A stretch of 64,000 nt of DNA from Schmidtea polychroa (Eukaryota), in assembly GCA_044892525.1 (NCBI GenBank), contig CM097885.1, positions 3,660,001 to 3,724,000 on the forward strand. The letters run 5' to 3'. Shown piece by piece: positions 22,295 through 60,136 of the stretch (position 1 is the first letter of the stretch; each line of letters starts with the position of its first letter). Under the pieces are notes generated by a model that saw only the letters and a list, made by a program, of their open reading frames with translations, was not told where the DNA came from and searched no databases. Both the position numbers and the translations under genes were made by a program.

Positions 22295-22950
22295 ATGATA
22301 TTTCAGTTCCTATTTTTGCTATTCATCACAACCGTTTGGACAGATTCCGAATCAGATTGCGAAATTTGCGAGTAAATTATCTTTTATAATTATTTATAAG
22401 AATTTTAATATTTTTTGTTTAAATTGATGAAATATTGATTTTTTCTTTTTAATTCTGTGAGTCTTTTATTTGTAAATGTGTTTATATAATTACAGGATAT
22501 GCGAGGCTGGGGGGTTCATGGACAGTACGGAATGTTGCCTCAGTAACGTCCTCTACAAGATTTGCGAAAGCAAATTAGAAATCAGTAAGAATTCTTTCTC
22601 ATTTCTTTAATCAACTTTATATAATTTATTATTAGAAAAATTATTAAATTTTGTTTAAATTAATAGCTTTTAGAAAAATCGAAAATAATTAGTAAAATCA
22701 ATTTTCCTTTCACTCTATTCCTGTTTTTATGAATTTCACTTTAGGCCGGGATAAACGAAGAGGGCTAATTGGGAAACGACGAGGTCTAATTGGAAAACGA
22801 CGAGGTCTGATAGGGAAACGACGAGGATTAATTGGGAAAAGGCGTGGACTAATTGGGAAGAGGCGAGGCTTAATCGGGAAAAGGCGTGGATTGATAGGTA
22901 AAAGACAATTACTTAGCGGCAAGCAAAGTATTTTTCAAGATGAGTATTAA
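22295..22950 (+). CDS. npp-2: Neuropeptide precursor with 7 copies of RGLI-amide (flatworm NPP-2-like), 123 aa, 3 coding exons
   Basis: Exons 22295-22371, 22496-22584 and 22745-22950 with GT-AG introns splice in frame to MIFQFLFLLFITTVWT-DSESDCEICEICEAGGFMDSTECCLSNVLYKICESKLEISRDKR-(RGLIGKR)x7-QLLSGKQSIFQDEY. Signal peptide, dibasic sites, amide-donor Gly; repeats differ only synonymously. The gene name is recalled from flatworm RGLI/RGMI-amide precursors, not searched. Confidence 0.88.
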
Positions 22951-23423
22951 CAATACTTTTTGTAATTTTAAATGAATATATAATTATTCCTTTCGTTTAT
23001 TTTTTTATTTCAAACAAACAATAATTAATATCAACAACTTACATATTTGACAACTGTTTAGATATTGTCTATAAATTACCATTAGTAGTGATGATCTCGG
23101 AACCCTTTTATTGCTTCGTAATATTCCTTCCTTATTCTTGGAAACCATCTTCCGACAGATTCTTTAAATGTATGCTAGGAAATCGAAGGAATCAAAAAAA
23201 GGAAGTGAAAAGTCAAATTTACCTTAAATCACCTTTGCAGTCAAACCTTTGAATAAATTTAACCTAATATTAGAAATTGAACCTTCGATGAATAATTTTA
23301 ATCCTTCTTGGAACCAATGTTTCCTCTAAGCTGCGCGCTTTCAAAAATTTTAAATTTAAAAACTTCATAGTCTTGTATCAATTTAGATAGAAATCGATAT
23401 TATTATTATTATTATTATTATTA

Positions 23424-24942: not shown

Positions 24943-27340
24943 ATGTCCCCATCTCATCATTTTCTGTGGCCTATTAACAAAATAAAAATATCTGTATAAT
25001 GGAATTTTTTTTAAAAATTTTTGTCAATTTTAAATATGACCAGCATTATATCAGTAATATTATTTGTCTTATTTTTCTTTCTAATCTAGTTTTTGTCATG
25101 AAACTTTACTGATCTATATTTAAAATTGTAAACGTTGTTTAATTACGTACAATGAAATACATATGTATTTAAAATCTGTAAACGCGTGTTTGATTGTTTT
25201 TATTGTGAAATTTTATTTGCTTAATATACACATAAAATTAGGTAAGTACATTTAAAAAATTTGGTATTTAATTTTTTTTTTAATTTTTTAGTTTTTTATT
25301 ATTTCAAGCGAACTTATTTTATTATTTAAAATTTACAAATATTAATATTTACTACTGTCATAAAATGAATGCAAAAAAAAACGAGAAATTACGAGTGAGA
25401 ATCGGGAATTTAAAGAACGATGGGAAATTGATTATATGTTTGTGAAGCAGAAAGAAATTTATCTGTGTTTGATATGCCGGATGAATACTACTATATGTAA
25501 AGAATATAATCTGAAGCGTCATTATCAATCACAGCATGCAGACAAATATTCGAAATATAATGGTGAGTCGAGAATCGTCATACTAGAAAATTTAAAAAAA
25601 CAATTTAAGCAGCAAACATCAATTATCCCCCTCGCATGTAAGGCTCAGGATGCATCTGTTTATGCTTCTTATGCAGTTGCAAAAGAAATTGCCAAAGCCA
25701 AAAAGCCATTTACTGATGGTGAAATTATTAAGAAGTGTGCAATTAAAATGACTCAAGCATTTGGAGATGATAAAATGGCAAAACAGTTCGAGTCAGTTTC
25801 TCTTTCTCACCAAACCGTTGCAAGACGAATCTTAAATATGGACACCTTCTTAGTTGAAAAATTAGCAGACATAGTAAAAAATTGTATATATTTTTCAATT
25901 GCGCTTGATGAAAGCACCGACATATCTCATACCAGCCAAATGCTGATTTTTGTACGAACAGTGGATGGTGATTTTAATGTTTCGGAGGAGTTACTGAAAT
26001 TGGCTTCCCTACATTCAACAACAAAAGGTGTAGATATTTATGAGGAACTCAAAAATGTTGTTTGCATGTATGGTGGTTTTGAAAAATGCACTGCCATTGT
26101 AACTGATGGAGGAAAATTAATGGTCGGGAAAAATATAGGACTCGCTGGACTGCTAAAACAAAATGGTATTAATTGTCAAATGTTGCATTGCTTTATTCAC
26201 CAGCAAGCTTTATGTGGAAACATTATGGGATTAAGTTGCACGATGAGTACAATTATTAAAATAACAAATGCAATAAGAGGCGGAAACCGTGCACTCATTC
26301 ATCGTAAATTCAACAATTTCTTGAAGAACTTGATGCCCAATATGGTGATCTACTTTTGCATAGCCAAGTTCGCTGGTTAAGTGCAGGGAAATGCCTTAAA
26401 AGATTTTTTCAACTTCGTAAAGAAATTAAACTTTTTCTTATGGAAACAGAATTGGATTCGTCATTTATAGCCAGTTTTAATGAAAAAAACATTTTTAATT
26501 TCATTAGCATTTTTAGCAGATATTACCGAATATTTGAATGTTTTGAACAAAACTTGCAAGGCAAAGACCAAAACATAAGTCATCTGGTAAGCCATATCAT
26601 CGGATTCCGCAATAAGTTACGTTTGCTTCGGTCGCATTTGATTAACAACAATTTGGTGCACTTCGAGTGTTGTAATGAACTTGCTATCGAAATGCAAGAA
26701 ATCGGTCAACAATTAAACATGAAAGATTATGTACCCATGTTGGACAAATTGGTTGAAGATTTTGATGCCAGATTTTCTGATTTTGATGCAATTAAACCAG
26801 AACTAAAATTATTTAATAATCCGACTACCATCGACGTTGAAGAAACCGATATTAAATATCAAATGGAATTATGTGAATTGCAAGCTGACGAATTTTTTAA
26901 ATCAAGGCTGGAGACAGGGGTAAATTTATTCAAAATGTTTCCAAACGACAAATATCCAAAATTGCGCGATTTGGGCTTAAAATTAATTTCTATGTTTGGT
27001 AGTACATATATTTGTGAACGAGCATTTTCTGACATGAAATATATCAAATCTATATATAGAAATTCAATGACCGACAAAACACTGGAAGAAATTTTAAGAA
27101 TTTCCTCAACTAAAATTGATATAAATATCGAAGTTCTTGTAGCTGCCCATATAAATAAGCAGTTTTCACATTAATAAATATTATGTTAATATTTTTTTTC
27201 TTTTTTTTCTTGAACAATGAACTAATAAAATACTAAAAAAAATTATAAATGACTTTTAATTAAAATTTATAGTATATGGCCCGCCAAACCTACAAAAAGA
27301 TAAAATTGGCACACATGTACAGAAAAGTTGGACAGCGCTG
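24943..27340 (+). mobile_element. hAT (SPIN/Buster) element nested in the PLE RT, left terminus deleted
   Basis: Transposase CLIC..YNLKRHY, FSIALDESTD, VTDG, HCFIHQ, VRWLS, MFGSTYICERAFS with frameshifts. Right end ...AAGTTGGACAGCGCTG followed by GTCTACAT; GTCTACA also at 24936-24942. Removing it restores RT MNSLHKNI. Confidence 0.9.
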
Positions 27341-28480
27341 GTCTACATAAAAACATTGTATTCATATGTGAAACGAAGAAAAAATCATAGCTTGCTTTCT
27401 TGGATCTGTTAATACAATGCAAAGAGAAACACTATGAGACAGAGATTTATAGAAAACCAACTGATACTGGTCTCTATACTTTTTCCGAAAGTTTTTGTGA
27501 ATTCAAGTATAAAAGAAATATGGTGAAGGGGTTGATTTATCGTGCATGGTCTTTGTCTTCTACTTTTAAAAATTCAGTAAAAAGTGTTGACATATTGGTT
27601 GAATTGTTAATGAAGAACGGTTATTCAAAATCCTTTTTAGTAATTATGGTGAAAGAGACTGTTGACAAATTTATTAAAAATTCTAAGGATCCATGTTTAA
27701 GAAAATCTGTGGTGTGATCTTGTTGAGGTATGAGAGTCTGATGAGTTAAATAAATTAAATAGTGTGAGCAAGGATGATGAGCCTAAATTTGTGTTAGTAT
27801 TGCCGTACTCAGAAGGTTTTAAGGATTATAAAGTGAAGGTAAGAAAGCAGTTAGGGAATTTAAACTATAGGATAGTATCAATATGTTTATTAATAAGTCA
27901 AAAACTCCGGTTGAATTGTGTTCCGATCTCGTTTATCAGTTTACATGTAATGGGTGTAATGCCACGTACATTGGAGAGACTTCCCGTCATCTCTGTATTC
28001 GAGTTCGAGAACATTGTAGACCGAAGGCTTTGACCCATATTGATGAGCACAATAAGGGCTATAAGATTAAAATAGGTATGTCTGATTTTAAAATTTTATT
28101 AAAAAATTTCGATAATTATTGGGAACGTGTGATATTTGAGGCGTTGTTGATAAAATCATTGAATCCGAAAATTAATGTGCAGAATGCAGTAAATACTTGT
28201 GTTTTAAGTGTTTTTAAATAAGTTTTTAAATAGGTTTTCTTATATTGTATGTATTAATTGTTGTATTAAATTAAATAATTAATAAAAATTTTTTAAATTA
28301 ATAAATTAAATTTTAGATGCTAAATGTTTAAAAAAATAATATATTAATTTAAGTATAATTTTTTTAAAAATAATTAAATGTTTTTATAAAATAAAAAACT
28401 TTTTTATATATAAATAATCAAAAAAACGTGGCAATGATTTAATAATACAGAAACGCCAACTCAATAAATTCAACATAAAC

Positions 28481-28517
28481 GCAATATATTTCAATTGTAC
28501 AACAATCTTCGTCAGGC
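28481..28517 (-). ncRNA. Minimal hammerhead ribozyme in pLTR
   Basis: gc-CTGACGA-a-gattg-ttgta-caatt-GAAA-TATATT-gc. Confidence 0.7.
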
Positions 28518-30859
28518 CGCAATCTGGATAATCAATAATAAGACATAAAATATGCAATATCTAAACATATTAACTAATAATAATCATCTCCAAACTGTAT
28601 CAAAAATTTTAAAAAAAAATATTTCAAACAAAAAAAAATATTTTAAAAAACCAAACCATATTTAACATAGCCCCACATACATATTATTTTAAAATTAAAT
28701 TTTAATTTAATAACATTTAACATTCAACATAAAATTAACAAATTTAAAAAAATTACATAGTTTACAAAACACAAACATAATTATACCACAAACAAGACTC
28801 CCAACCTTCATCCTTCAATTACTTAAACACATTCAAAATCTCCGTGGAACGGGCAACTTGATCATTTATTTTTGGATTTAAATATCTAATCAACAATGCC
28901 TCACAAGTTACTCGTTCCCAATAATTACTTAAACCTTTTGAAATAATTTTAAAATCAGAGATACCTATTTTTTACTGACACATTTCCTAACATGATTACT
29001 AATATTAGTCAATGCTTTTGGTCGACAGTGTTCAAGAACTCGGGTGCAGAGATGGCGGGCAGTCTCTCCAATGTATGTGGCATTACACTCATTACATGAA
29101 AATTGATACACGAGCTCAGAACACAAACCAATTGGCGTTGGACATTTACTAGTAAACATACTGCTAACTTTGCAAGAAGTGGAAACAATCATGAATTGAT
29201 CCTTGTCTACATATTTGAAAATTTTATGTTTAAATTCTCTGAAATCCTCAGAATAAGGCAATACTAACACATATTTCGGCTCCATGCGATTGGATCGATC
29301 CTTGTCACTTTCCGAATTTAACATAGTACTTTCCTCAGGATCAATAGGTACCTCAGATTCAGACGTACGCATACCAACGTTATCAGCTTTAAACATTAAC
29401 TTATCCACGGTCACTTTTGTCATTTTCTCAAGAAAAGATTTAGAGTAGCCATTTTTAAGTAACAACTCAACCAATACATCAATACTTTTTACTGAATTAG
29501 CAAACGTGGAGGATAGTGGCCACGCACGAAACACTAATCCTCTCACCATATTCCTTTTATATTTAAACTCACAAAAACTATCAGGCGTTGTATATAAACC
29601 AGTATCCGTCGACTTTCTATATATTTCAGTCTCATAATGTTTCGATTTACGTTGAATAAGTAAATCTAAAAACGCAATCGATGACCATTTTTCTTCTTCA
29701 CATGTGAATTTAATATTCATATGCAAATCATTCATAAAATTTAAAAACGGCATTACATGCTCACGACTCTCAAACACCAAAAAAATATCATCCACATACC
29801 GTTTGTACACACTAAGTTTAACAAGATGGCATGAAGACATTTTCTTTTCCAAACTAGACATAAAAATAGAAGCCATAGTTGGGGCTAATGGAGAACCCAT
29901 AGCAACACCATCCACTTGTTTATACCATTCATTATTAAACAAAAAGTTAACCTTCGACGTTGAAAATTCAAGCAATTTGCGAAAAGCAATTTTATCCATA
30001 TTCTTATGTTCAGACTCATTATTATTTCACATTTCACAACATAAATCAATCGTTTCCGCCAATGGAACATTAGTAAAAAGACTACACACATCAAACGAAA
30101 CCATCATTTCATCATCAGAACTTTTCTTCAGTGCAGCAATGAATGAAGCAAATTCAAAGCTATCCTTACATTCGAACTCAGACTGGATTGTTTCCACTTC
30201 TTGCAAAGTTAGCAGTATGTTTACTAGTAAATGTCCAACGCCAATTGGTTTGTGTTCTGAGCTCGTGTATCAATTTTCATGTAATGAGTGTAATGCAACA
30301 TACATTGGAGAGACTGCCCGTCATCTCTGCACCCGAGTTCTTGAACACTGTCGACCAAAAGCATTGACTAATATTAGTAATCATGTTAGGAAATGTGTCA
30401 GTAAAAAAATAGGTATCTCTGATTTTAAAATTATTTCAAAAGGTTTAAGTAATTATTGGGAACGAGTAACTTGTGAGGCATTGTTGATTAGATATTTAAA
30501 TCCAAAAATAAATGATCAAGTTGCCCGTTCCACGGAGATTTTGAATGTGTTTAAGTAATTGAAGGATGAAAGTTGGGAGTCTTGTTTGTGGTATAATTAT
30601 GTTTGTGTTTTGTAAACTATGTAATTTTTTTAAATTTGTTAATTTTATGTTGAATGTTAAATGTTATTAAATTAAAATTTAATTTTAAAATAATATGTAT
30701 GTGGGGCTATGTTAAATATGGTTTGGTTTTTTAAAATATTTTTTTTTGTTTGAAATATTTTTTTTTAAAATTTTTGATACAGTTTGGAGATGATTATTAT
30801 TAGTTAATTTGTTTAGATATTGCATATTTTATGTCTTATTATTGATTATCCAGATTGCG

Positions 30860-30896
30860 GCCTGACGAAGATTGTTGTACAATTGAAATATATCGC
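30860..30896 (+). ncRNA. Minimal hammerhead ribozyme in inverted pLTR
   Basis: gc-CTGACGA-a-gattg-ttgta-caatt-GAAA-TATATC-gc, with AUC triplet. Confidence 0.72.
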
Positions 30897-30968
30897 GTTT
30901 ATGTTGAATTTTTTATATATAATTAATAAATTTGTTTAAAATCCTTAATTTAATGAGTTATTATATCC

Positions 30969-45232: not shown

Positions 45233-46454
45233 CATGGCGTCCACATGGGGAGACTGACAAGGCTTTAGCCCTAGGGCCCGGGATTAATGGGGCCCGCCGT
45301 GGCAGGTCGGTTAGCTAAATGAGAAACTTATTAAATATTGACTTTTGTTTTGTACATATCAACTAAAATTTATTAATTTTCCACGAGATCGGTTAACATG
45401 GAGTGCATCAAAAGAAGCTCTCTTCTGTCTACCATTTCGTATTTGTTGTGACCAAATTAGCAAAAACTTAAGCAGTTTAGCCCAAGAAGGATTTTTGCCT
45501 AGAAATAAACCTTGGAAAAAGTTGTATGATATTTTGCCTCCTCATGAAAATAGTGCTCACCATAGAAAACATGATTTATCATGGAAATTCTTATTGCAGA
45601 CATTAAAAGGATATGGAATAGATAAAGATTTACAACGGCAAATTCAATGGGAGACAACTTATTGGAAAGCACTTCAGAAACGGATTGTAGATGTAACATT
45701 ATTTTTATCATCAAGAGGTTTAGCTTATCAGGGATATAACACTCATATTGGTGATGTTCATAATTGGAATTTCTTAGAAATTTTAGAATTGATTGGAAAA
45801 TATGATGAAGTGACACAACTTACCGCAAAAGCATCAAAGCTTGTAAAAACATATGAGTCAGATCTGTCAGAAGACTTACTGCACGAATTTCTTCCCCTTA
45901 AAAGTATTCACAAAACAGTTTTCGGAACTAAAAGAAGTCCAGTTAAACTTCTGAATGCAATTTATGACAAAAAACTGCAAGGTACATTTGCTAATATCTG
46001 CCTCGCCATTCAACTGTTTTGTACCGTACCAGTTACGGTTTCTTCAGCTGAAAGATCATTCAGAAGGCTGGCAAATTCAATAAAAACATGGCAAAGAAGC
46101 ACAACTAGTCAAGATCGACTCAATCATCTAGCAATTTTAAGTATCGAAAATGATTTAGCAAAGAAATTTGATTTTAATGATGTCATTGAAAAATTTGCAT
46201 TGACATAAGCTAGAAAATATAGTCTACTTTGAGATAATTTTTGATATTATTGTAAGTTTTTACCATAGTCTATGTTTTTTAAAATGTAAAGCTGAAAGCT
46301 GTAGTTTATTTTTAATAAATTTTTAATGTTACTTTCTTGCCATCATTTATCCGCCCTTTTTTATTCTAATTCCTATAGAGCATCAAGTGGTATATAGTTT
46401 GGGGGCCCGCGAAAATCCTGGCCTGGGGGTCCCCTTTAGGATGTGGGGGTCATG
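45233..46454 (+). mobile_element. Internally deleted hAT (ZMYM1-like) element
   Basis: TIR CATGGCGTCCACAT / ATGTGGGGGTCATG. Perfect 8-bp TSD ATGAAGAT (45225-45232, 46455-46462). ORF 45345-46208 joins the N-terminal part directly to the dimerisation domain (TVPVTVSSAERSF). Confidence 0.9.
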
Positions 46455-46705: not shown

Positions 46706-47685
46706 TGGATTTTGTGGTTTGTGCAAATCAATTAAATTTAACTTGTTTTCTTAGATGTAGATGCTGTCAAGAATACAAGAAGAAAGAAATAGTATACATT
46801 CTACTTGCTGAATTAAGAAGAACTTCATTATAAGCAAATATGTGATGAAGAATAAACGTTGCATCTTTATTTTGCTTTTAATTATTATTATTTTTATGTG
46901 TTTGTTAGTACTTGGTGGTTGATGTAGTGCCTCTGACTTCTACATTAATAAAAATATCAACTTAATAATTAAACTTAAAATATATTATTAAATTAATTAT
47001 ATTAAAATGATTGTTTATATATTCTTTTTTTTCAAAAAACATCATAAACAATTCATGCATCTTTCGACATCTCAATGGTTAACTCTCATAAAATGAATAT
47101 AAAATATCTGGCAAACATTCGAGAAGATGAAACATTTGTTTTCCTATCTGAGATCAATTTAATCAGTTTGATCATCAACCCCTTCTATTCAACCAAAGAA
47201 ATTTTCCATAAAGAAATTTTCTTTAGAATACTAGTAGTCATCCCAATGTCCAGATCAAATATAGGTCAATCGAATCATTTTATTTATTTATTTATTTTTT
47301 TTTTAAATTTATTTAATTCTATTTAATTTTTTTTAATTTAATAATTAATTATTTTATTAGGTTTTTTGTTTTAATTAATTACTTTAGTTAATTTTAATAT
47401 TCTAGTTAATATTCTAACAAGAGTGTAAATTGTAACAATATTATTTCAATTTGAATAAAATTTTAATTAGTAATAATCATAAAATAAAGCTGTGTTAATT
47501 TAAAATAAAATGGGCATTAATTTTTCAAAACAAAGTAAAGTTTTTCATGATAAATAATAATTCTTACTTGAAACTAATTATCTAAATTAATTGCACAAAT
47601 GAATTATTAAATGATAAAACATATTTTAATTAACGAAGTCAAATAATTCACAATATATATTTTATTATTCACATAAATTTAATTG

Positions 47686-50600
47686 TTAAAGTGCTTGTTT
47701 CGATTTGCATTCATTTCTAGACATAGCAGTTGCAATATGCATTTGACGAATCTTATAGTGACCGTAGGCATAGCTTTCATTAGAATTGAACCAATACCTT
47801 TTATCATCCAAACATTGGAGAGCTCGTTTTTCTGTAATGAAAGTATACAACTGATGATTAACACTTCCTATTCTCTTTTGTTGAATGCTCACTGTTCCAC
47901 CATCAGTATACACTTTTTTATAGGCTTCATGGGTGATATTAGAATTTGTAAGACTTATTCCTTTGGCTTTTAGAGTGTTTTTATCGCCTTGGAGGGAGTA
48001 GCATTTGGGTCGAAGAAACACCCATTCTTTATATTGATTTCCTTTATTCTCATCCTTAACTTTCCCGATTACCGAACAAATTTTATCTGAGAACAATGGA
48101 TCAGTCACTGGATAATTTGAAGTATCTAGGAGCCCATCGGCAATCATTTATGGATACAGTTGTAAGCGTAAATCAACATTTTTACACTCTAAAAAGAAGG
48201 AATCTGTGTCACCACCTACGATATTAATTTGACAATTGAATTCTTCTCTATAACTCTGTAGTTCTTTATATTGAAACTGGTACATGCGAAGTTTAGATAA
48301 ATCAAGTACGGTTTGTCCAATATACATTGGTCTATCTAAACACACAATTTCCTTATTGAGTAAAACAGCAATGAGATCATCCGCAATCTTGATGCTACGA
48401 CGAAACATAGGATGACTACAATAAGTTATCAATCTTTTGCTTTTGTTGCATAATCTCAAATTTATACGTTTCTTCAAGTTTTCCACAGTTTTACCGTATA
48501 AACTGTTGTTCTTTAACTTATAATAATCTCGCTGAAACGAATCCGTACTAGCTGCTCTCATTTTGGTATTGTAATCAATATATCCTTTGAAAATAGCCAC
48601 TTGCTTGAATTCTACAGCACGATTAACTTTTGTGACTTTTGCGCCGTAACTCAACCACTCTGTCAAAACTCTACCATTAACTACATAGTTTTTCTTAGGC
48701 TCATGAGTTAACAACAGCTTTTCAACTTTACTACCAGGTGGATAACAAAGCTCAGGAGCTATAGGTAAATCATCTAGCTTATCTTGTATACTATCAGGAA
48801 TGACGATGTCAACCTCTAGAACATATCCACGATCTCCATCAAACTCATCCCCATTTGCACATCTTTCAACAATACCATTCATTTCAGTCTGATCATTTAT
48901 CCATCTAAATTCACCAACAGGAAGTTTTTGCGACAGTGCCCATCCATATAAATTATTAACATCTAGGTATGACATTTGTGTTGATTCATCAGCTTCAACA
49001 TGATGTTTGTTGATAAATGTCATTCCACCACGAATACCAGCTTCAAATAAACGGTAAAGCTCTGGATCTTGAATAAGTTCTACCGGTTCAGGTAACTGTT
49101 TAATAGCTGATGCCCAACTTAATCCGGGTATGGAAACAAACGATAGAGCCTCAAGTCCGTCTTCGTCAAATGTTTTTTCTCTGAAAGCTTCAAAAACATC
49201 GGCCAACAGAAAAACATCCAGCTTGAGATATACTAGCATGTAATCTAGCAGTGTCTCACAGTTGTATTGTTGCCAGATTCGATTTGCATGTATATAATCT
49301 TCTTGACTAACTCCTTCCCAAATCGGTGGTAATTCTCTTATTGACTGTAAAACATCCATTGATGTAGCTATATCATAAGGAAAAATGGTTTTACAAGTCA
49401 TCATCTGTGATTCGAAAACATCTGAGGTCAGTGGAAGACATGGTAAATTTTTTGATAAATTTGCCAAGCTGCTATTTAAAAATTGTAAAGAATCAATGAA
49501 TCTAATTCTTCTGCCTTTCGATGTCGCTGTAAGTGTGAGAAACTTTTCTGTTGATTGAGGAATAACATTTAAATTCCAATCGGGGAATTTTCCAATTGCA
49601 TATTTTAATATATGATGAATGTCATATCCACGAAGATTGTGAAATACAACAGGTAAAGACGGATTGATTCTTCTAGCCAAATTACAATCTTGACACGCTG
49701 CTCCGAGATATTGACTGGTAAAATGATCATGATCCCGAACAGGTATATTGATAATCTTTTTACAAAGGTAGCAATGAGTTTGGTTTGTGAATTCTTCCTG
49801 CTGTTCCCAAGTGAGTTCCATCATTTCCTTTGATCCATTAATTTTATACCACGGATAAACTATGTCTGTAGCTATATCATCCAATGCTTGTATAAACTGA
49901 ATGATACAGTTTTTCCCAACAAATGTTTCATTTCGGATCGGACAACCTTGATGAAGAAGCACAAATTCAGATGCAATCGGCTCATGTTTTTGGAAGTGCT
50001 TGCCATCTAGAGGTAATATCGATTCAAAGTCCGCGTAGACAACAAACTGCTGTTTTATAGTTTTACTCCAGTCTTTAAATTCGATCTATTTATTCTCTGG
50101 CATTGAGTATAGAGTCGTCCGCTCCACATTCTTCCTACAAAGACATATATGTCTTTCAAAAGCAGGACGTTTTCGAAACCCATGAAGACATGTATGACAC
50201 CATTGTGATTGGATTCTGACTCCTTCTACTTTATCTCTGTAATTCAGCAGTCGATCGCGATTGGTTACAGCCAAAAAATGATAATTTAATTCTAAAATTT
50301 AGTTAATATTTTAATGATTAATAGAAATATTACCTTCTTCAATCAATAGGAGATATATCTGAGATCCCGTCGGAGTACTTCTATATACCAAGTCAACGAA
50401 CGGATTCTTGAAAATATCATAAGTTTTTTGTTTAATTGGATCCTTATTATATTTGAGAACATTGATCGATAGATTAGGATTCATTGCCTCAAATTGGCAA
50501 ATGTTAACCAACTTTATTGGAAACCAATCTGATTTCCATTTTAGCTCTAAATATATATATATATATTTTTTTTTCTTAGAATGATATAAATATATATTAC

Positions 50601-51675
50601 CACTTAAATTATATTTCATTACTCTTTCTCTGTAGTGTTTTATGTCATCATAATGTAATACAGCCAGTATGCTATATAAAAAACAGAATTGATCATTGTT
50701 TTGAACATTAACTAAAGCCTTGCAGTTTTTCAGGTAATTTGGCGTTTTAATGTAACTTGAACCTAAGTAAATATCTTGATTTATATATATATAATAATGT
50801 AAATAAACTTACCAGATACATGTATTATGTCTGATAATTTAGTTAAAATCATAGTAACTTCTAATATTTTATGAATTCTCCACCCACTACTTTGTTGAGT
50901 GTATTTCTCCAACTTTTCTTTTAATTTTTCAATTCCATCATTAATAAATGAAGATGACATTGTAATTGCTTTATTCGACAAACACCATTTTTTATTTTCA
51001 CCATCCTCTTTGATAAACTCTGCACAAAGTCCAAATTGGATTTTTACTGTCCCCATTCGTTGAATATGATCTTCTATTTCTTTGATGAGACAATCTGGAA
51101 CAACAATGTCAGGAGAATTAATTGCAGATACATCGCTTGTCAATTCAACTCGAGAACCATTTAAGTCAGACTCCCGACGTGGACACAATTGTATGTTAGA
51201 GTCTCCATTTCCGTAAAATATTGACTTTCGTTTTGTGGTGCCAGAGTTTTGTCTAACTATATTTATAATTAATATTAAACAACTTAAATAACATAACTTG
51301 TAACATATTCTTTAATCTGCTAAGGATCGTATGATGTATTCATTTTCGATTGTACTATAAACAATTAATAATTGTTAATAGTAGAAAGAGTATTACTTTT
51401 AGTGATCATCCTGCCCTTCGTTTCTTCGAATCTTCTAAGATGGTGTCCGTGTTGTCGTACAAACATTAACCACCTACTTGGTGTTATAATGAGACATTCC
51501 GGACATATGTAACCCGATAAGGTAGAGTCATTTATCTTGAAATATGATGATGTAACTGATTTACAGTTCTCCACATCTTCATGACTTTCGGCAATACAAA
51601 ATTTATATAAACTGCATCCGTTCACTAAAAGAAAATAATCATTAATATTAGATAGAGAATAAAAAATTATTCACT
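47686..51675 (-). pseudogene. Protein-primed family B DNA polymerase, left arm, 7 exons, 1236 codons plus stop
   Basis: Exons 51675, 51624-51397, 51354-51298, 51256-50813, 50762-50601, 50546-50334, 50291-47686 splice in one frame. Motifs GSSYIKTP..NNDQFCF, YADFES, VRDHDH..GAACQDCNL, FHNLRGYD, YLDVNNLYG, KLKNNSLYGK, GDTDS. Three nonsense codons (51320-22, 50086-88, 48148-50). Confidence 0.9.
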
Positions 51676-51747
51676 TATATAAGTTAAATTAAAAGTTTAA
51701 ATGACAAACATTTGAAAAGTTACTGCTTATATATTACACATGATTAA

Positions 51748-51881
51748 ATTCTGACTGATCAAAATCAAGGAAGGGGTAGGAAAAATAAATATATTCTGAC
51801 CAATCAAAATCAAGGAAGGGGTAGGGAAATTAAATACATTCTGACCAATCAAAATCAAGGAAGGGGTAGGAAAAATAAATG
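51748..51881 (-). promoter_or_regulatory. Triplicated ~45-bp CCAAT-containing unit upstream of the pPolB TATA box
   Basis: TTCTGACCAATCAAAATCAAGGAAGGGGTAGG x3 here and x1 in the right arm (55147-55190). TATATAAG lies about 15 bp toward the gene. Confidence 0.6.
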
Positions 51882-52159
51882 CATTACGTTGCAGTATTTT
51901 AAAACACATTTTGATGCTAAAGTTGACTTATTTAACATTTTCATAATAATTTAATAAAAAATAATGTGATGAACACACAAAGTAATATCATTTTTCATCA
52001 AATTGCAAAACAGTAATAACGTTTTCATAAAATTATAACAAAGTAATAACATATTTCAAATAAATTTTCAACAGTTGTAAAATATTTAAGCAAATTGTTA
52101 TAAGATTATAAAAATATTGCAACAAAGTAATAAAATAATACAACATTTTAAACTCTAGA

Positions 52160-52600
52160 TCAATCCATTTTATAGAAAATTAAATTTTATCTCTATAATA
52201 TATGAATAAATATACAAGGAAATTACGTTAACGTATAATAAATACAAGTTTATCGTAAAAACATGTGTGTATTACACACAAAACAAGATACATAATTTCT
52301 AATCAATCCATTTTATAGAAAATTAAATTTTATCTATATATTATATGAATAAAATCCTAAGAAAATTACGTTAACCGCGCGAAAAATACAAATTTATCGT
52401 AAAAACATGTGTGTATTACACACAAAGCGACAAACTAAAATTGTAATTGAGCCATTTTATAGAAAATTAAATTTTATCTATATAATATATGAATAAAAAT
52501 CCAAGAAAATTACGTTAACCGCGCGAAAAATACAAATTTATTGTAAAAACATATGTGTATTACACACTAAACACCAAACTAAAATTGTAATTGAGACATG
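52160..52600. repeat. ~145-bp tandem repeat, 3 units (2 units in the right arm, 54570-54868)
   Basis: Unit starts CCATTTTATAGAAAATTAAATTTTATCT and contains the near-palindromes TACGTTAACGTA and TGTGTGTATTACACACA. Confidence 0.9.
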
Positions 52601-53859
52601 TTGTAGAGAATTAAATTCTGCCTATACATGGTTACACTTAAATCCCAATCGGACAAAGAGAAAAGAGAGAAAAAGAGAGAGAAAAACAGTAGAGGAGGGT
52701 ATTGTGTGGAGCCGGGAACAAGGACATATGACGTCATCGATGACGTCACAAGGACGTATGACGCATACCCCCCACCCCTCGGGGAGGGGGGTTTTTTTAA
52801 TTTTTTTTAATATATTACGTTGCGGTATTTTAAAATTTATATTACGTTGCGGTATTTTAAAATTTATGTTGAGGTTCCAAGAATCTCAACTTGATGATCT
52901 TATATAAATAAATAAGTCAAACACTGGTTCTTTCAAGACTTTTATTTGATAACAATAATGATATATTACAAAATAAAATATTCACCTTTTCACACAGTCA
53001 ATTATGTAATTTTATATAGGGTTGTCTTGTTGTCTTGTTTTCTTTGCTAATAGTCTCTAGATGCTATTACCTGAGCTCGGTTATGTAAATCTGTATGCTC
53101 AAATTATATTGCAATATCAATTACTGAATTTGCAACTCTTCTTCGCAAATGATTTTTTTGGGTGAGTTGACTGAAATATCAGTCTGTATATATACCAATT
53201 TTTTGTTGACACCCCATTTGGAGTGTCAACATACCTATTTTATTTTCCCTGGTATTTTGTTTATTTTAAATGCGATTTTCTTGGTTTTGTTTGTTTGGTT
53301 GGTTTCCATTTGAAATCGTTACAGTTTTGAATGAAATTGAAATTAAATATATTTTGCATTATTTATTTTGATTGATATTTTCGAGAATATTTACAATATC
53401 GATTTCAATAAATCCTAATCATGTGTTGTTTAAATAGGAACTCGATTTGCAATTTGCTCAATATTTGCAAAAGCAGTCGTTTCAAGGAGTAGATTCCCAA
53501 ATACTTATTATTCAATTTTGTTTTATTGAATTAATCTAAAAATATTTTGCTTAACATTTTAATAAGCCTTTATTATTATTATTGTTTATTTTATCAAAGT
53601 CCAAAACGATTAAAATTGGATCAGTAGCATCTCTCATAACGCAACACTGTTTCGATCGCGCATAGAATGAATATGATACGACGAATAAATAAATCATTAG
53701 CAACAAAAATAAAAATCGTAAAGCAACAACAACAAAATAACCCAAAACCACATTTTATGTTTGAAATTGTTGAAAATTTTTCTAATGCAAACAATATGCA
53801 CTTAGTGCAATAAAATAAACATTCAACCAACTGGTTGATTTTTTTTTAAAAAATAATTG

Positions 53860-53964
<105 letters not shown>

Positions 53965-53977
53965 TAATAATAATAAC

Positions 53978-54051
<74 letters not shown>

Positions 54052-54064
54052 TAATAATAATAAC

Positions 54065-54130
<66 letters not shown>

Positions 54131-55261
54131 TTCACCATAAAAATAAAAACAATCGATGTTATAATCAAATAATTTAATCAATATAGTCATAATTGTCGAT
54201 AGATCACCAAATTGTCATCATCTTGTATTCGAATCAATTTTCATTAACTTATTTCTGAATATGTATATTTATTCTATATCTATCTGCCCCTATTGTATAA
54301 TATTTTAATTTTAAAATTTTTAGGATTCTCCCATCTTCTAACATTTATATTACGTTGCGGTATTTTAATATATTACGTTGCGGTATTTTAAAATTTAAAT
54401 TTATTTTATTCACATCATTCGAAAGGTCTTGAAGAGATCTATGCAAAGGTTTCACCCGGCTCCACACAAAACCCTACTCTACTGTTTTTCTCTCTCTTTT
54501 TCTCTCTTTTCTCTTTGTCCGATTGGGATTTAAGTGTAACCATGTATAGGCAGAATTTAATACTCTACAACATGGCTCAATTACAATTTTAGTTTGGTGT
54601 TTAGTGTGTAATACACACATGTTTTTACGATAAATTTGTATTTTTCATACAGTTAACGTAATTTTCTTAGGATTTTATTCATATAATATATAGATAAAAT
54701 TTAATTTTCTATAAAATGGATTGATTAGAAATTATGTATCTTGTTTTGTGTGTAATACACACATGTTTTTACGATAAATTTGTATTTATTATACGTTAAC
54801 GTAATTTCCTTGTATATTTATTCATATATTATAGAGATAAAATTTAATTTTCTATAAAATGGATTGATCTAGAGTTTAAAATGTTGTATTATTTTATTAC
54901 TTTGTTGCAATATTTTTATAATCTTATAACAATTTGCTTAAATATTTTACAACTGTTGAAAATTTATTTGAAATATGTTATTACTTTGTTATAATTTTAT
55001 GAAAACGTTATTACTGTTTTGCAATTTGATGAAAAATGATATTACTTTGTGTGTTCATCACATTATTTTTTATTAAATTATTATGAAAATGTTAAATAAG
55101 TCAACTTTAGCATCAAAATGTGTTTTAAAATACTGCAACGTAATGCATTTATTTTCCCTACCCCTTCCTTGATTTTGATTGGTCAGAATTTAATCATGTG
55201 TAATATATAAGCAGTAACTTTTCAAATGTTTGTCATTTAAACTTTTAATTTAACTTATATA

Positions 55262-58200
55262 AGTGAATAATTTTTTATTCTCTATCTAATATTAATGATT
55301 ATTTTCTTTTAGTGAACGGATGCAGTTTATATAAATTTTGTATTGCCGAAAGTCATGAAGATGTGGAGAACTGTAAATCAGTTACATCATCATATTTCAA
55401 GATAAATGACTCTACCTTATCGGGTTACATATGTCCGGAATGTCTCATTATAACACCAAGTAGGTGGTTAATGTTTGTACGACAACACAGACACCATCTT
55501 AGAAGATTCGAAGAAACGAAGAGCAGGATGATCACTAAAAGTAATACTCTTTCTACTATTAACAATTATTAATTTTTTATAGTACAATCGAAACTGAATA
55601 CATCATACGATCCTAAGCAGATTAAAGAATATGTTACAAGTTATGTTATTTAAGTTGTTTAATATTAATTATAAATATAGTTAGACAAAACTCTGGCACC
55701 ACAAAACGAAAGTCAATATTTTACAGAAATGGAGACTCCAACAATTGTGTCTACGTCGGGAGTCTGACTTAAATGGTTCTCGAGTTGAATTGACAAGCGA
55801 TGTATCTGCAATTAATTCTCCTGACATTGTTGTTCCAGATTGTCTCATCAAAGAAATAGAAGATCATATTCAACGAATGGGGACAGTAAAAATCCAATTT
55901 GGACTTTGTGCAGAGTTTATCAAAGAGGATGGTGAAATTAAAAAATGGTGTTTGTCGAATAAAGCAATTACAATGTCATCTTCATTTATTAATGATGGAA
56001 TTGAAAAATTAAAAGAAAAGTTGGAGAAATACACTCAACAAAGTAGTGGGTGGAGAATTCATAAAATATTAGAAGTTACTATGATTTTAACTAAATTATC
56101 AGACATAATACATGTATCTGGTAAGTTTATTTACATTATTATATATATATAAATCAAGATATTTACTTAGGTTCAAGTTACATTAAAACGCCAAATTACC
56201 TGAAAAACTGCAAGGCTTTAGTTAATGTTCAAAACAATGATCAATTCTGTTTTTTATATAGCATACTGGCTGTATTACATTATGATGACATAAAACACTA
56301 CAGAGAAAGAGTAATGAAATATAATTTAAGTGGTAATATATATTTATATCATTCTAAGAAAAAAAAATATATATATATATATTTAGAGCTAAAATGGAAA
56401 TCAGATTGGTTTCCAATAAAGTTGGTTAACATTTGCCAATTTGAGGCAATGAATCCTAATCTATCGATCAATGTTCTCAAATATAATAAGGATCCAATTA
56501 AACAAAAAACTTATGATATTTTCAAGAATCCGTTCGTTGACTTGGTATATAGAAGTACTCCGACGGGATCTCAGATATATCTCCTATTGATTGAAGAAGG
56601 TAATATTTCTATTAATCATTAAAATATTAACTAAATTTTAGAATTAAATTATCATTTTTTGGCTGTAACCAATCGCGATCGACTGCTGAATTACAGAGAT
56701 AAAGTAGAAGGAGTCAGAATCCAATCACAATGGTGTCATACATGTCTTCATGGGTTTCGAAAACGTCCTGCTTTTGAAAGACATATATGTCTTTGTAGGA
56801 AGAATGTGGAGCGGACGACTCTATACTCAATGCCAGAGAATAAATAGATCGAATTTAAAGACTGGAGTAAAACTATAAAATAGCAGTTTGTTGTCTACGC
56901 GGCCTTTGAATCGATATTACCTCTAGATGGCAAGCACTTCCAAAAACATGAGCCGATTGCATCTGAATTTGTGCTTCTTCATCAAAATTGTCCGATCCGA
57001 AATGAAACATTTGTTGGGAAAAACTGTATCATTCAGTTTATACAAGCATTGGATGATATAGCTACAGACATAGTTTATCCGTGGTATAAAATTAATGGAT
57101 CAAAGGAAATGATGGAACTCACTTGGGAACAGCAGGAAGAATTCACAAACCAAACTCATTGCTACCTTTGTAAAAAGATTATCAATATACCTGTTCGGGA
57201 TCATGATCATTTTACCGGTCAATATCTCGGAGCAGCGTGTCAAGATTGTAATTTGGCTAGAAGAATCAATCCGTCTTTACCTGTTGTATTTCACAATCTT
57301 CGTGGATATGACATTCATCATATATTAAAATATGCAATTGGAAAATTCCCCGATTGGAATTTAAATGTTATTCCTCAATCAACAGAAAAGTTTCTCACAC
57401 TTACAGCGACATCGAAAGGCAGAAGAATTAGATTCATTGATTCTTTACAATTTTTAAATAGCAGCTTGGCAAATTTATCAAAAAATTTACCATGTCTTCC
57501 ACTGACCTCAGATGTTTTCGAATCACAGATGATGACTTGTAAAACCATTTTTCCTTATGATATGGCTACATCAATGGATGTTTTACAGTCAATAACAGAA
57601 TTACCACCGATTTGGAAGGAGTTAGTCAAGAAGATTATATACATGCAAATCGAATCTGGCAACAATACAACTGTGAGACACTGCTAGATTACATGCTAGT
57701 ATATCTCAAGCTGCATGTTTTTCTGTTGGCCGATGTTTTTGAAGCTTTCAGAGAAAAAACATTTGACGAAGATGGACTTGAGGCTCTATCGTTTGTTTCC
57801 ATACCCGGATTAAGTTGGGCATCAGCTATTAAACAGTTACCTAAACCGGTAGAACTTATTCAAGATCCAGAGCTTTACCGTTTATTTGAAGCTGGTATTC
57901 GTGGTGGAATGACATTTATCAACAAACATCATGTTGAAGCTGATGAATCAACACAAATGTCATACCTAGATGTTAATAATTTATATGGATGGGCGCTGTC
58001 GCAAAAACTTCCTGTTGGTGAATTTAGATGGATAAATGATCAGACTGAAATGAATGGTATTGTTGAAAGATGTGCAAATGGGGATGAGTTTGATGGAGAT
58101 CGTGGATATGTTCTAGAGGTTGACATCGTCATTCCTGATAGTATACAAGATAAGCTAGATGATTTACCTATAGCTCCTGAGCTTTGTTATCCACCTGGTA

Positions 58201-59246
58201 GTAAAGTTGAAAAGCTGTTGTTAACTCATGAGCCTAAGAAAAACTATGTAGTTAATGGTAGAGTTTTGACAGAGTGGTTGAGTTACGGCGCAAAAGTCAC
58301 AAAAGTTAATCGTGCTGTAGAATTCAAGCAAGTGGCTATTTTCAAAGGATATATTGATTACAAAACCAAAATGAGAGCAGCTAGTACGGATTCGTTTCAG
58401 CGAGATTATTATAAGTTAAAGAACAACAGTTTATACGGTAAAACTGTGGAAAACTTGAAGAAACGTATAAATTTGAGATTATGCAACAAAAGCAAAAGAT
58501 TGATAACTTATTGTAGTCATCCTATGTTTCATCGTAGCATCAAGATTGCGGATGATCTCATTGCTGTTTTACTCAATAAGGAAATTGTGTGTTTAGATAG
58601 ACCAATGTATATTGGACAAACCGTACTTGATTTATCTAAACTTCGCATGTACCAGTTTCAATATAAAGAACTACAGAGTTATAGAGAAGAATTCAATTGT
58701 CAAATTAATATCGTAGCTGGTGACACAGATTCCTTCTTTTTAGAGTGTAAAAATGTTGATTTACGCTTACAACTGTATCCAAAAATGATTGCCGATGGGC
58801 TCCTAGATACTTCAAATTATCCAGTGACTGATCCATTGTTCTCAGATAAAATTTGTTCGGTAATCGGGAAAGTTAAGGATGAGAATAAAGGAAATCAATA
58901 TAAAGAATGGGTGTTTCTTCGACCCAAATGCTACTCCCTCCAAGGCGATAAAAACACTCTAAAAGCCAAAGGAATAAGTCTTACAAATTCTAATATCACC
59001 CATGAAGCCTATAAAAAAGTGTATACTGATGGTGGAACAGTGAGCATCCAACAAAAGAGAATAGGAAGTGTCAATCATCAGTTGTATACTTTCATTACAG
59101 AAAAACGAGCTCTCCAATGTTTGGATGATAAAAGGTATTGGTTCAATTCTAATGAAAGCTATGCCTACGGTCACTATAAGATTCGTCAAATGCATATTGC
59201 AACTGCTATGTCTAGAAATGAATGCAAATCGAAACAAGCACTTTAA
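55262..59246 (+). pseudogene. Protein-primed family B DNA polymerase, right arm
   Basis: Exons 55262, 55313-55540, 55583-55639, 55681-56120, 56171-56332, 56387-56599, 56642-59246. Lesions: 4-bp deletion near 55742, TAG 56845-47 (shared with the left arm), TAG 56881-83, ExoI D>A, 1-bp deletion near 57614. Confidence 0.9.
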
Positions 59247-60136
59247 CAATTAAATTTATGTGAATAATAAAATATATATTGTGAATTATTTGACTTCGTT
59301 AATTAAAATATGTTTTATCATTTAATAATTCATTTGTCCAATTAATTTAGATAATTAGTTTTAAGTAAGAATTATTATTTATCATGAAAAACTTTGCTTT
59401 GTTTTGAAAAATTAATGCCCATTTTATTTTAAATTAACACAGCTTTATTTTATGATTATTACTAATTAAAATTTTATTCAAATTGAAATATTATTGTTAC
59501 AATTTACACTCTTAAAACAATAAATGCTGCTACCAAGCAATCATCATTTTATAATTTACACTCTTGTTAGAATATTAACTAGAATATTAAAATTAACTAA
59601 AGTAATTAATTAAAACAAAAAACCTAGTAAAATAATTAATTATTAAATTAAAAAAAAAATTAAATAGAATTAAATAAATTTAAAAAAAATAAATAAATAA
59701 AATGATTCGATTGACCTATATTTGATCTGGACATTGGGATGACCTTGAAAGTGTCCTGGAGTCCTCACTACATACTACTAATACTAATTCACGATTCTAG
59801 TGATTCTCATGATAAAGTTCATTAAGAGAGCCAAACTGACCTATCCGTCTCCGATTGCCAAAAGGAGTTAATAATCGAAGTTATTACAGATAAAGATTTC
59901 AATACTTTCACATCGTACGATACTGGAGCTGAAATTCCCAAATGTGAGATCATCAACAAACTCAGTATATTCGCCAGATCAAAGTCCGATGCTTTCGTTG
60001 GAAAATTAACTGCTGGAGCCAATATTTCTATGATCGCTTTCAATGTCGTTTTCAATAAAAACTTTATGCAAATTCGTTTCGAGTCTATACAGTTGACACT
60101 TGGTTGTTGATTGAATTATTATTATTATTATTACTT

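Follow-up and report, generated by a model that had tools for sequence, protein, structure and literature searches.

Six short phase-1 introns, one within the start codon, predicted in the polymerase gene of a palindromic Polinton derivative of Schmidtea polychroa

A palindromic Polinton derivative and its polymerase gene

The stretch analyzed here, referred to as the window, comprises 64,000 nucleotides of Schmidtea polychroa DNA (GenBank assembly GCA_044892525.1, contig CM097885.1, positions 3,660,001 to 3,724,000 of the forward strand). Positions 47233..59779 of the window hold a palindromic, polymerase-only derivative of a Polinton, 12,547 nt long, which begins with AGTAGT and ends with ACTACT and is flanked on the forward strand by two copies of a 6-bp target-site duplication (TSD), AATACT, at 47227..47232 and 59780..59785. 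The right arm (54455..59779, forward strand) contains 144-bp repeats, a predicted promoter, an outward-pointing gene whose product is a family B DNA polymerase of the protein-primed type (pPolB) and a terminal repeat. The left arm (47233..52716, reverse strand) is 99.3% identical to it, with a terminus that lacks a short stretch just inside AGTAGT, and a pPolB gene lies within each of these 5.3-kb inverted arms. This gene is predicted to contain six introns of 41 to 54 nt close to its 5' end, the first of which splits the start codon. The center of the element (52717..54454) differs between copies and holds no Polinton gene, and no Rfam match was found in it or elsewhere in 47000-60000. At both of its inner ends (52717-52870 and 54340-54454), a 27-nt repeat unit is found together with a short motif that is itself palindromic, and these inner-end pieces recur at one end of a one-gene form of the element (L055).

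The right-arm gene is divided into seven predicted exons on the forward strand. Exon 1 (55235..55262; about 28 nt, with a putative 5' end) would be non-coding up to its final base, which supplies the A of the start codon. Exon 2 (55313..55540; 228 nt) supplies the TG of the start codon and a single Cys/His module resembling a zinc finger, for which the residue pattern suggests metal binding; the module is repeated in tandem in some relatives, and exon 2 matches the N-termini of P0002, P0003, L050, L051, L059, and L062. Exon 3 (55583..55639; 57 nt) is a linker, with a stop codon in the left-arm copy. Exon 4 (55681..56120) would encode the whole terminal protein (TP) domain, of LF/PAD fold, with the presumed linking Ser in an SGW motif, and carries a frameshift near 55740. 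Exon 5 (56171..56332; 162 nt) covers the first part of a vOTU domain, including its presumed catalytic Cys, exon 6 (56387..56599; 213 nt) covers the middle of that domain, and exon 7 (56642..59246) covers the vOTU His, an exonuclease region with an endonuclease-VII-like insert, and the family B polymerase. An AATAAA polyadenylation signal follows at 59266..59271 (forward strand). The left-arm copy of the gene (47686..51675, reverse strand) has the same six introns and stops in exons 3 and 7. In the right arm, exon 7 has a stop about 70 codons in, common to both arms, and a frameshift near 57614; neither arm has an intact 2.6-kb last exon, and both gene copies in the window are defective.

An original prediction, made from the sequence alone, had identified the gene as a virus-like (Polinton) pPolB, and this was borne out by the match of exon 7 to PF03175 (protein-primed family B polymerase; E 5.8e-31, above the cut-off). 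The endonuclease-VII-like insert scored just under the Pfam cut-off, no named Pfam domain was found in exons 2 to 6, and exon 2 searched alone returned no database homologue. The predicted structure of a relative, P0001, had phi29 polymerase as its best match, and a search of viral contigs with P0001 gave no match. For the N-terminal region, the TP-vOTU fold was modeled on the matching intron-free stretch of a sister element, L051, and not on the window gene itself (pLDDT 94). Residues 9-117 of this model resemble the LF/PAD fold (4ir1; Z 8.0, root-mean-square deviation 2.5, 93 residues aligned) and residues 130-259 the OTU fold (4bop; Z 7.3, deviation 3.1, 103 aligned), with many more OTU structures among the matches. 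The structural check that had been proposed for this region did find the TP fold, on the sister element, but the adjoining part resembled a vOTU. The presumed Ser, Cys, and His are present in exons 4, 5, and 7 of the window gene. The Z-scores of 7 to 8 are middling and count against the fold assignments, and Foldseek with the TP-vOTU model gave no match at E<=0.001. Passages of bioRxiv 10.1101/2024.03.18.585575 make the same TP and vOTU assignments in pPolB. Taken together, these data suggest the gene order zinc finger, TP, vOTU, exonuclease, polymerase. The introns had all been placed in a TP third of the gene; introns 1 to 4 do flank the zinc-finger/TP region, but introns 5 and 6 split the vOTU. 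Similarly, the motifs that had been described as restored by splicing are of Polinton type, but the GSSY, CFLY, and HF motifs quoted belong to the vOTU rather than to the terminal protein.

Six predicted introns and a split start codon

All six right-arm introns have GT-AG ends and interrupt the frame after codon position 1, with the lengths and phases that had been proposed. Intron 1 (55263..55312, forward strand, as are all six; 50 nt) splits the start codon as A|TG. Introns 2 (55541..55582; 42 nt) and 3 (55640..55680; 41 nt) flank the linker exon, and intron 4 (56121..56170; 50 nt) interrupts the codon for the Gly of GSSY, where TP borders on vOTU. Intron 5 (56333..56386; 54 nt) lies inside the vOTU and ranges from 39 to 61 nt across copies, and intron 6 (56600..56641; 42 nt) lies a few codons 5' of the presumed vOTU catalytic His. 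The left arm carries the same six introns on the reverse strand (51674-51625, 51396-51355, 51297-51257, 50812-50763, 50600-50547, and 50333-50292), with one base in total differing from the right arm. In the right arm, the introns are about 86 to 93% A+T, as measured with a one-base offset, compared with an exon GC content of 0.28 to 0.36, and they show features of U2-type spliceosomal introns, namely, GT-AG ends, an AT- and pyrimidine-rich 3' end, and conserved sites. The internal exons of the left arm each have a length divisible by 3 (228, 57, 444, 162, and 213 nt), exon 4 being 440 nt long in the frameshifted right arm. Left-arm exons 2, 4, 5, and 6 are stop-free only in the frame entered in phase 1, the other frames containing 4 to 15 stops each, and every frame of exon 3 contains a single stop.

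The observation that both arms keep all splice sites, made in the original prediction, is true; however, the arms are weak witnesses, because only 37 of 5,235 positions differ between them. A search of the 781-Mb genome (four large contigs) with the 1.5-kb region gave 1,047 candidates, of which 40 were scored, and 30 copies were fetched. These copies are 95 to 100% identical, and all 30 keep the A|TG and 12 of 12 splice sites. Across 29 copies, gaps occupy 235 of 8,091 intron positions but 3 of 31,900 exon positions, and none of the 24 splice-dinucleotide positions varies, compared with 56 of 255 other intron positions. Intron lengths change by numbers that are not multiples of 3 while the exon frames stay intact, and the shared variants in exons 2 to 6 (21 non-synonymous and 18 synonymous) give a ratio of non-synonymous to synonymous polymorphism (pN/pS) of 0.29. 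On these sequence grounds, we regard the six phase-1 introns with GT-AG ends, together with the divided A|TG, as confirmed at the level of DNA. No processed, intron-less copy was found among the best 150 of 3,697 exon-2 candidates, in which the open frames around exon 2 span 91 to 133 amino acids. Compared among themselves, the six introns do not form an introner family, 14 of the 15 pairs being similar only at the level of shuffled sequence.

Several observations weigh against reading these segments as functional introns. Substitution rates are similar in introns (3.2%) and exons (2.9%), and neither exon 2 (1 synonymous and 3 non-synonymous variants) nor exon 3 (0 and 3) shows a purifying signal when taken alone. 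The base before the intron is A rather than G at three of the six junctions. Exon 3, a 19-codon linker, had no detected homologue among the relatives compared. No matching spliced junction appeared among the joints listed, and in three runs that were guessed to be RNA, and may be DNA, low-depth contigs read through introns 2 and 3 unspliced. Finally, three introns (41 to 42 nt) fall below the length peak of 45 to 85 nt that passages of PMC13594981 report for short planarian introns. The lack of a matching junction and the unspliced contigs, together with the broken state of both window copies, would fit the alternative that the segments are unspliced AT-rich insertions that became fixed in an inactive founder copy and multiplied passively. 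However, this alternative would require six insertions with exact GT-AG ends whose removal restores colinearity to the codon, and it is opposed by the invariant splice dinucleotides, the exon frames kept while intron lengths change, and the pN/pS value. We consider it extremely improbable.

A putative RNA polymerase II promoter lies at 55177..55238 (forward strand) and contains what we take to be a reverse CCAAT box (55177-55182), a TATA box (55204-55211), and an initiator-like TCATTT (55233-55238) at the presumed start site. The positions of the TATA and initiator-like motifs would imply a first exon of about 28 nt. The TATA motif and an A at -3 are present in 31 of 31 copies and TCATTT in 30 of 31, and comparable promoter motifs also lie upstream of the intron-free relative L059. 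In all 31 copies an in-frame stop occurs 8 codons upstream of the start-codon A, with neither a Met nor an AG acceptor between them, and none of the first six ATGs in the unspliced RNA is in frame, the frames that they open running for 4 to 16 codons. In the relatives L059, L060, and L062, which start MNTC, MSNC, and MNC, the ATG is unsplit and aligns in register with the divided start (M-N-G-C) of the window gene. Therefore, intron 1 appears to lie within an inherited start codon, in agreement with the proposal that the start codon is created by splicing.

No matching junction was present among the 15 of 83 joints listed for the three guessed-RNA runs and one deep run of unrecorded kind. Runs X2 and X3 have zero coverage before about 55294 and after 59262, where run X6 continues, which is at most a weak hint of a transcript. 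The original prediction had suggested that the uniform phase would allow in-frame exon skipping and that retention of intron 1 could switch expression off. In a fuller form of this idea, regulated alternative splicing would produce a polymerase that lacks TP or cannot be cleaved, by skipping, or no product or a free TP, by retention of intron 1 or 4, in a manner similar to adenoviruses. The gene layout is consistent with such regulation, in that exon 2 corresponds to one zinc-finger module, exon 4 to the whole TP, and intron 4 to the TP/vOTU border, as is the presence of introns 2 and 3 in the low-depth contigs; in addition, passages of PMC11304566 describe adenovirus pTP and Pol as products of separate spliced mRNAs. 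However, introns 5 and 6 cut through the vOTU, and in-frame skipping would cost the protein its entire TP if exon 4 were left out, or its presumed catalytic Cys if exon 5 were. Retention of intron 1 brings in a stop in 30 of 30 copies, as does retention of intron 2, 3, or 6, so that intron 1 does not stand out as a switch. A retained intron 4 leads to a stop in 20 of 30 copies and to in-frame read-through in the other 10, and a free TP product made by intron-4 retention was rejected as not conserved. No skipped junction was present among the joints listed, and a related gene, L062, has introns of mixed phase. Intron definition favors retention over skipping. Short planarian introns are thought to be intron-defined, according to passages of PMC13594981. 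These results do not support a role of the uniform phase in exon skipping or of intron 1 as an off switch, and we hold regulated splicing to be decidedly unlikely.

Origin, phase, and position of the introns

The predicted introns can be compared with related pPolB genes, including the metagenomic relatives L059, L060, and L062, the last of which is a partial contig with its 3' end unseen. In L059, which is continuous, the counterpart of exon 2 starts at residue 2, that of exon 4 ends at residue 235 and that of exon 5 starts at 237, and that of exon 6 ends at 364 and that of exon 7 starts at 366. One-codon gaps of this kind are also found in L060 and, at introns 4 and 6, in P0001. Removal of the introns restores colinearity to the codon at introns 1, 4, and 6 and to within 2 to 3 residues at intron 5; the support for introns 2 and 3 is confined to frame and site conservation, because the linker that they flank has no homologue. 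In a quick tree of 19 sequences, the window family groups with L059, L060, P0001, and P0021 (SH-aLRT support 95), and L050, L051, P0002, and P0003, which are continuous at intron positions 2 to 6, fall outside this group. Because the intron-free relatives are colinear, parsimony suggests that all six introns were most likely gained on the branch leading to this family, and the comparison of intron positions that had been suggested earlier, in which relatives are intron-free at positions 1, 4, and 6, likewise favors gain. A point against this placement is that the tree was a quick one, without bootstrap, and that the fork around the family is open. The predicted protein of P0021, a close relative, starts in the middle of the vOTU behind a head of 14 unrelated residues, a possible sign of an intron at another position.

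Two related lineages have introns of their own. L051 has three leader introns, all in phase 1, and L062 has five introns of 42 to 46 nt in its zinc finger and linker (L062:1590-2243), with phases 1, 0, 0, 0, and 0 and an unsplit ATG. An alternative to gain is that the introns of the window family are old and were lost from relatives by recombination with complementary DNA (cDNA), 3' first. Intron loss biased toward the 3' end is expected to leave a 5' cluster, all six introns are confined to the opening 30% of the coding sequence (chance 7e-4), and the second intron of L062 and intron 2 lie, as judged by eye, about 4 nt apart. However, this scenario needs the exact loss of six introns in L059 and L060, of introns 4 to 6 in P0001, and of introns 2 to 6 in L050, L051, P0002, and P0003; the intron positions of L051 and L062 differ from those of the window family; and intact vertebrate Mavericks are intron-free in the account given in passages of PMC8097293. 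We therefore regard old introns as very unlikely and gain on the family's branch as the better explanation.

The probability that six of six introns would be in phase 1 by chance is approximately 0.07%, and that of any uniform phase approximately 1.2%, based on general animal phase shares; phase 0 is the usual excess among introns in the relevant part of PMC3488318. The uniformity is partly explained because insertion-type G sites favor codon position 1: in this AT-rich open reading frame (ORF), G and AG or G|R sites are at that position in 42 to 53% of cases. Furthermore, an exon born inside an existing intron must keep its phase, which may cover introns 2 and 3. Even so, six of six in phase 1 is still only 0.6 to 2.2% likely under the codon-bias model, which speaks against a full explanation of this kind. 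A phase-1 rule is argued against by the mixed phases of L062. These observations suggest that the uniform phase is mostly an incidental by-product, with part of it unexplained.

Alternatively, duplication or template switching in the course of strand-displacement copying may have multiplied the introns inside the gene, each inheriting the phase of the first. Runs of introns in the same phase do recur (six in phase 1 here, three in phase 1 in L051, and four consecutive in phase 0 in L062), the linker exons of L062 look duplicated (KLNED and KLNEE), and introns 1 and 2 are weakly similar (p about 0.01, 1 of 15 pairs). However, a single p of 0.01 in 15 tests is unremarkable, the remaining pairs showing no such similarity, and introns 4 to 6 interrupt conserved coding sequence, where no duplication of the flanks was observed. 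We judge this form of phase-preserving gain to be unlikely.

The feature common to the three intron-bearing lineages (the window family, L051, and L062) is the 5' position of their introns. Because confinement to the 5' end recurs in two other lineages with introns of their own, it suggests selection for 5' introns, possibly for introns that aid expression, an explanation for which we find the case evenly balanced. A more elaborate version holds that the element is a polymerase-only, palindromic satellite of planarian Polintons that is replicated as TP-capped linear DNA and whose expression has come to depend strictly on splicing. In this version, repeated, independent, adaptive gain of 5' micro-introns in this pPolB clade, the one in the start codon among them, by a process inclined to preserve phase, makes the message host-like, aiding export and escape from the silencing of foreign genes that lack introns. 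We regard this version as conceivable but doubtful.

The element family and its relation to known systems

A 6-bp TSD and terminal inverted repeats starting with AG were found in four of four elements checked. By an eye count, 57 back-to-back pairs account for approximately 114 of the best 150 exon-2 matches. A form with a single gene between terminal repeats of 280 bp is also present (L055), and a search of the genome with the terminal sequence gave 1,430 candidates. An assembly fold-back artifact was ruled out, since the arms differ, the element is flanked by a TSD, and most of the best matches are paired. No match to a Polinton integrase, capsid, ATPase, or protease was found in the window element and 40 family and sister loci, in a search in which both controls scored; the control L060 matched the capsid, penton-like, and protease queries, and the ATPase query had no control match. 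The weight of this absence is reduced in that 4.5-kb pieces make up the majority of the 30 search loci, its full scope being the window, L055 to L057, and the L031-L034 composite. The sole integrase-type match, a weak one in L056, lies in an inserted long terminal repeat (LTR) retroelement. A 30-kb pair considered as a full-length element was rejected as a nested composite with transposase-like ORFs, which we take to be of the hAT family. A segmented virus with its capsid on a second element was also rejected: the capsid loci are ordinary Polintons with their own polymerase, and the DNA that they share with the window element is limited to a 28-nt match. Only integrated copies were seen. The element is thus a Polinton by its polymerase, ends, and TSD but not an autonomous one.

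In seven of nine pairs the two arms are closest to each other, and in the other two they are tied. Inactivating lesions are shared between arms, namely, one stop in the window pair and one frameshift in another pair. Because paired arms share lesions, defective elements are probably copied in trans. A full Polinton in the same genome, with a 55%-identical pPolB, an integrase, an ATPase, a protease, AGTAG ends, and a 6-bp TSD, is a plausible helper. This Polinton (L052, L050, and L053; C2, approximately 50.146-50.163 Mb) has an adenain-type protease, capsid-like ORFs, and TBP and Bcl-2 homologues. The polymerases of the palindrome family L051 and the window family are 54% identical, and their 144-bp repeats and upstream region are 88 to 93% identical, the shared stretch being L051:1784-2819 and window positions 54474-55191; this suggests that polymerases may have been swapped on a common frame. 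By eye, 28 of the best 40 L051-type matches are paired. The Polinton load of the genome seems very heavy, with 8,820 first-look PF03175 candidates and 2,527 double-jelly-roll capsid candidates, figures that are not copy numbers.

We consider it reasonably probable that, as a whole, these observations reflect an intron-gaining, constitutively spliced pPolB of a non-autonomous, polymerase-only Polinton derivative that resides, integrated, in an AT-rich animal genome. In this explanation, host RNA polymerase II would most likely transcribe pPolB from the TATA/initiator promoter, the six minimal host-type introns would be removed constitutively, and removal of intron 1 would restore the inherited start codon. 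TP-primed strand displacement would copy the element and keep its two arms alike, and the integrase would be borrowed from full Polintons of the same genome. The introns would persist because the element is copied from DNA to DNA without a cDNA step.

Other features were noted in the window and in the locus L058. An exon at 22746-22951 (forward strand) has seven tandem KRRGLIG units, a pattern that presumably resembles the dibasic sites and amidation glycines of a neuropeptide prohormone. Positions 9405-11260, 25364-27174, 45342-46208, 18142-18903, and 27339-30914 contain broken hAT transposases, a DDE_1 transposase, and reverse-transcriptase fragments in an inverted arrangement, and one of the broken hAT transposases carries a Spin-doc zinc finger. 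L058, whose DNA is unrelated to the pPolB families, contains a small two-exon Cys-rich gene (L058:1200-1496), which presumably resembles the LITAF family.

Intron gain is seldom caught in animals. Here, a single gene family has six probable gains on one branch, and two related lineages have three and five more. Since the probable gains, intron-free relatives, and at least a thousand candidate matches occur in one family, in an animal that is probably amenable to laboratory work, this family allows tests of where new introns originate and of their bias in phase and toward the 5' end. A capsid-less, polymerase-only palindrome that seemingly borrows its integrase also adds a form to Polinton biology. 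No description of the family or of a palindromic polymerase-only Polinton was found in the literature, Repbase lying outside this scope, so that a prior description is possible. Likewise, the passages of the adintovirus and nematode Polinton papers that were searched included none on spliceosomal introns in pPolB, and PMC6431247 and PMC12220804 offered nothing of relevance.

The nearest sequence relatives of the window pPolB are capsid-bearing Polintons. Polintons/Mavericks (eupolintoviruses and animal adintoviruses) share with it the order TP-vOTU-EXO-PALM, according to passages of bioRxiv 10.1101/2024.03.18.585575, as well as AG-starting terminal repeats and a 6-bp TSD. In contrast to them, the window element has no integrase, capsid, ATPase, or adenain-type protease match and carries its polymerase in 5.3-kb inverted arms, and its gene has six predicted introns, whereas the intact vertebrate Mavericks described in PMC8097293 have none. 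A pPolB beside a terminal repeat without an integrase is reported for Caenorhabditis elegans in part of 10.1101/2024.01.15.575659. Closer to the window family, the L051 palindrome and the full Polinton L050 also have a spliced 5' start with a phase-1 acceptor just 5' of the zinc finger. However, in these families the introns are placed in a coding leader that precedes the zinc finger, and everything else forms a single open frame. In the window gene, by contrast, intron 1 divides the ATG and the other five introns interrupt the body of the protein.

Among more distant systems, adenovirus E2B (pTP and Ad-pol) likewise uses spliced messages for a protein-primed replication set, and the IVa2 start codon of the siadenovirus turkey hemorrhagic enteritis virus (THEV) likewise forms across a splice junction, both according to passages of PMC11304566. 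In adenoviruses, as described in part of the literature, TP and polymerase are separate, the vOTU is inactive, and the introns are long; in the window gene, in contrast, TP and polymerase are fused, the vOTU keeps its Cys and His, and the introns are 41 to 54 nt. Gain of spliceosomal introns by double-stranded DNA viruses has parallels in the introner-containing eupolintoviral elements integrated in dinoflagellates (passages of PMC12166617) and in the intron-rich, nuclear mirusviruses (passages of PMC12768974). Compared with those of either system, the introns of the window gene are tiny, do not form a repeat family, and lie in the polymerase of an animal Polinton. Linear plasmids and transpovirons are, in partial accounts, likewise capsid-less replicons built around a TP-fused pPolB; the window element differs from them in being nuclear, integrated with a 6-bp TSD, spliced according to prediction, and mostly palindromic.

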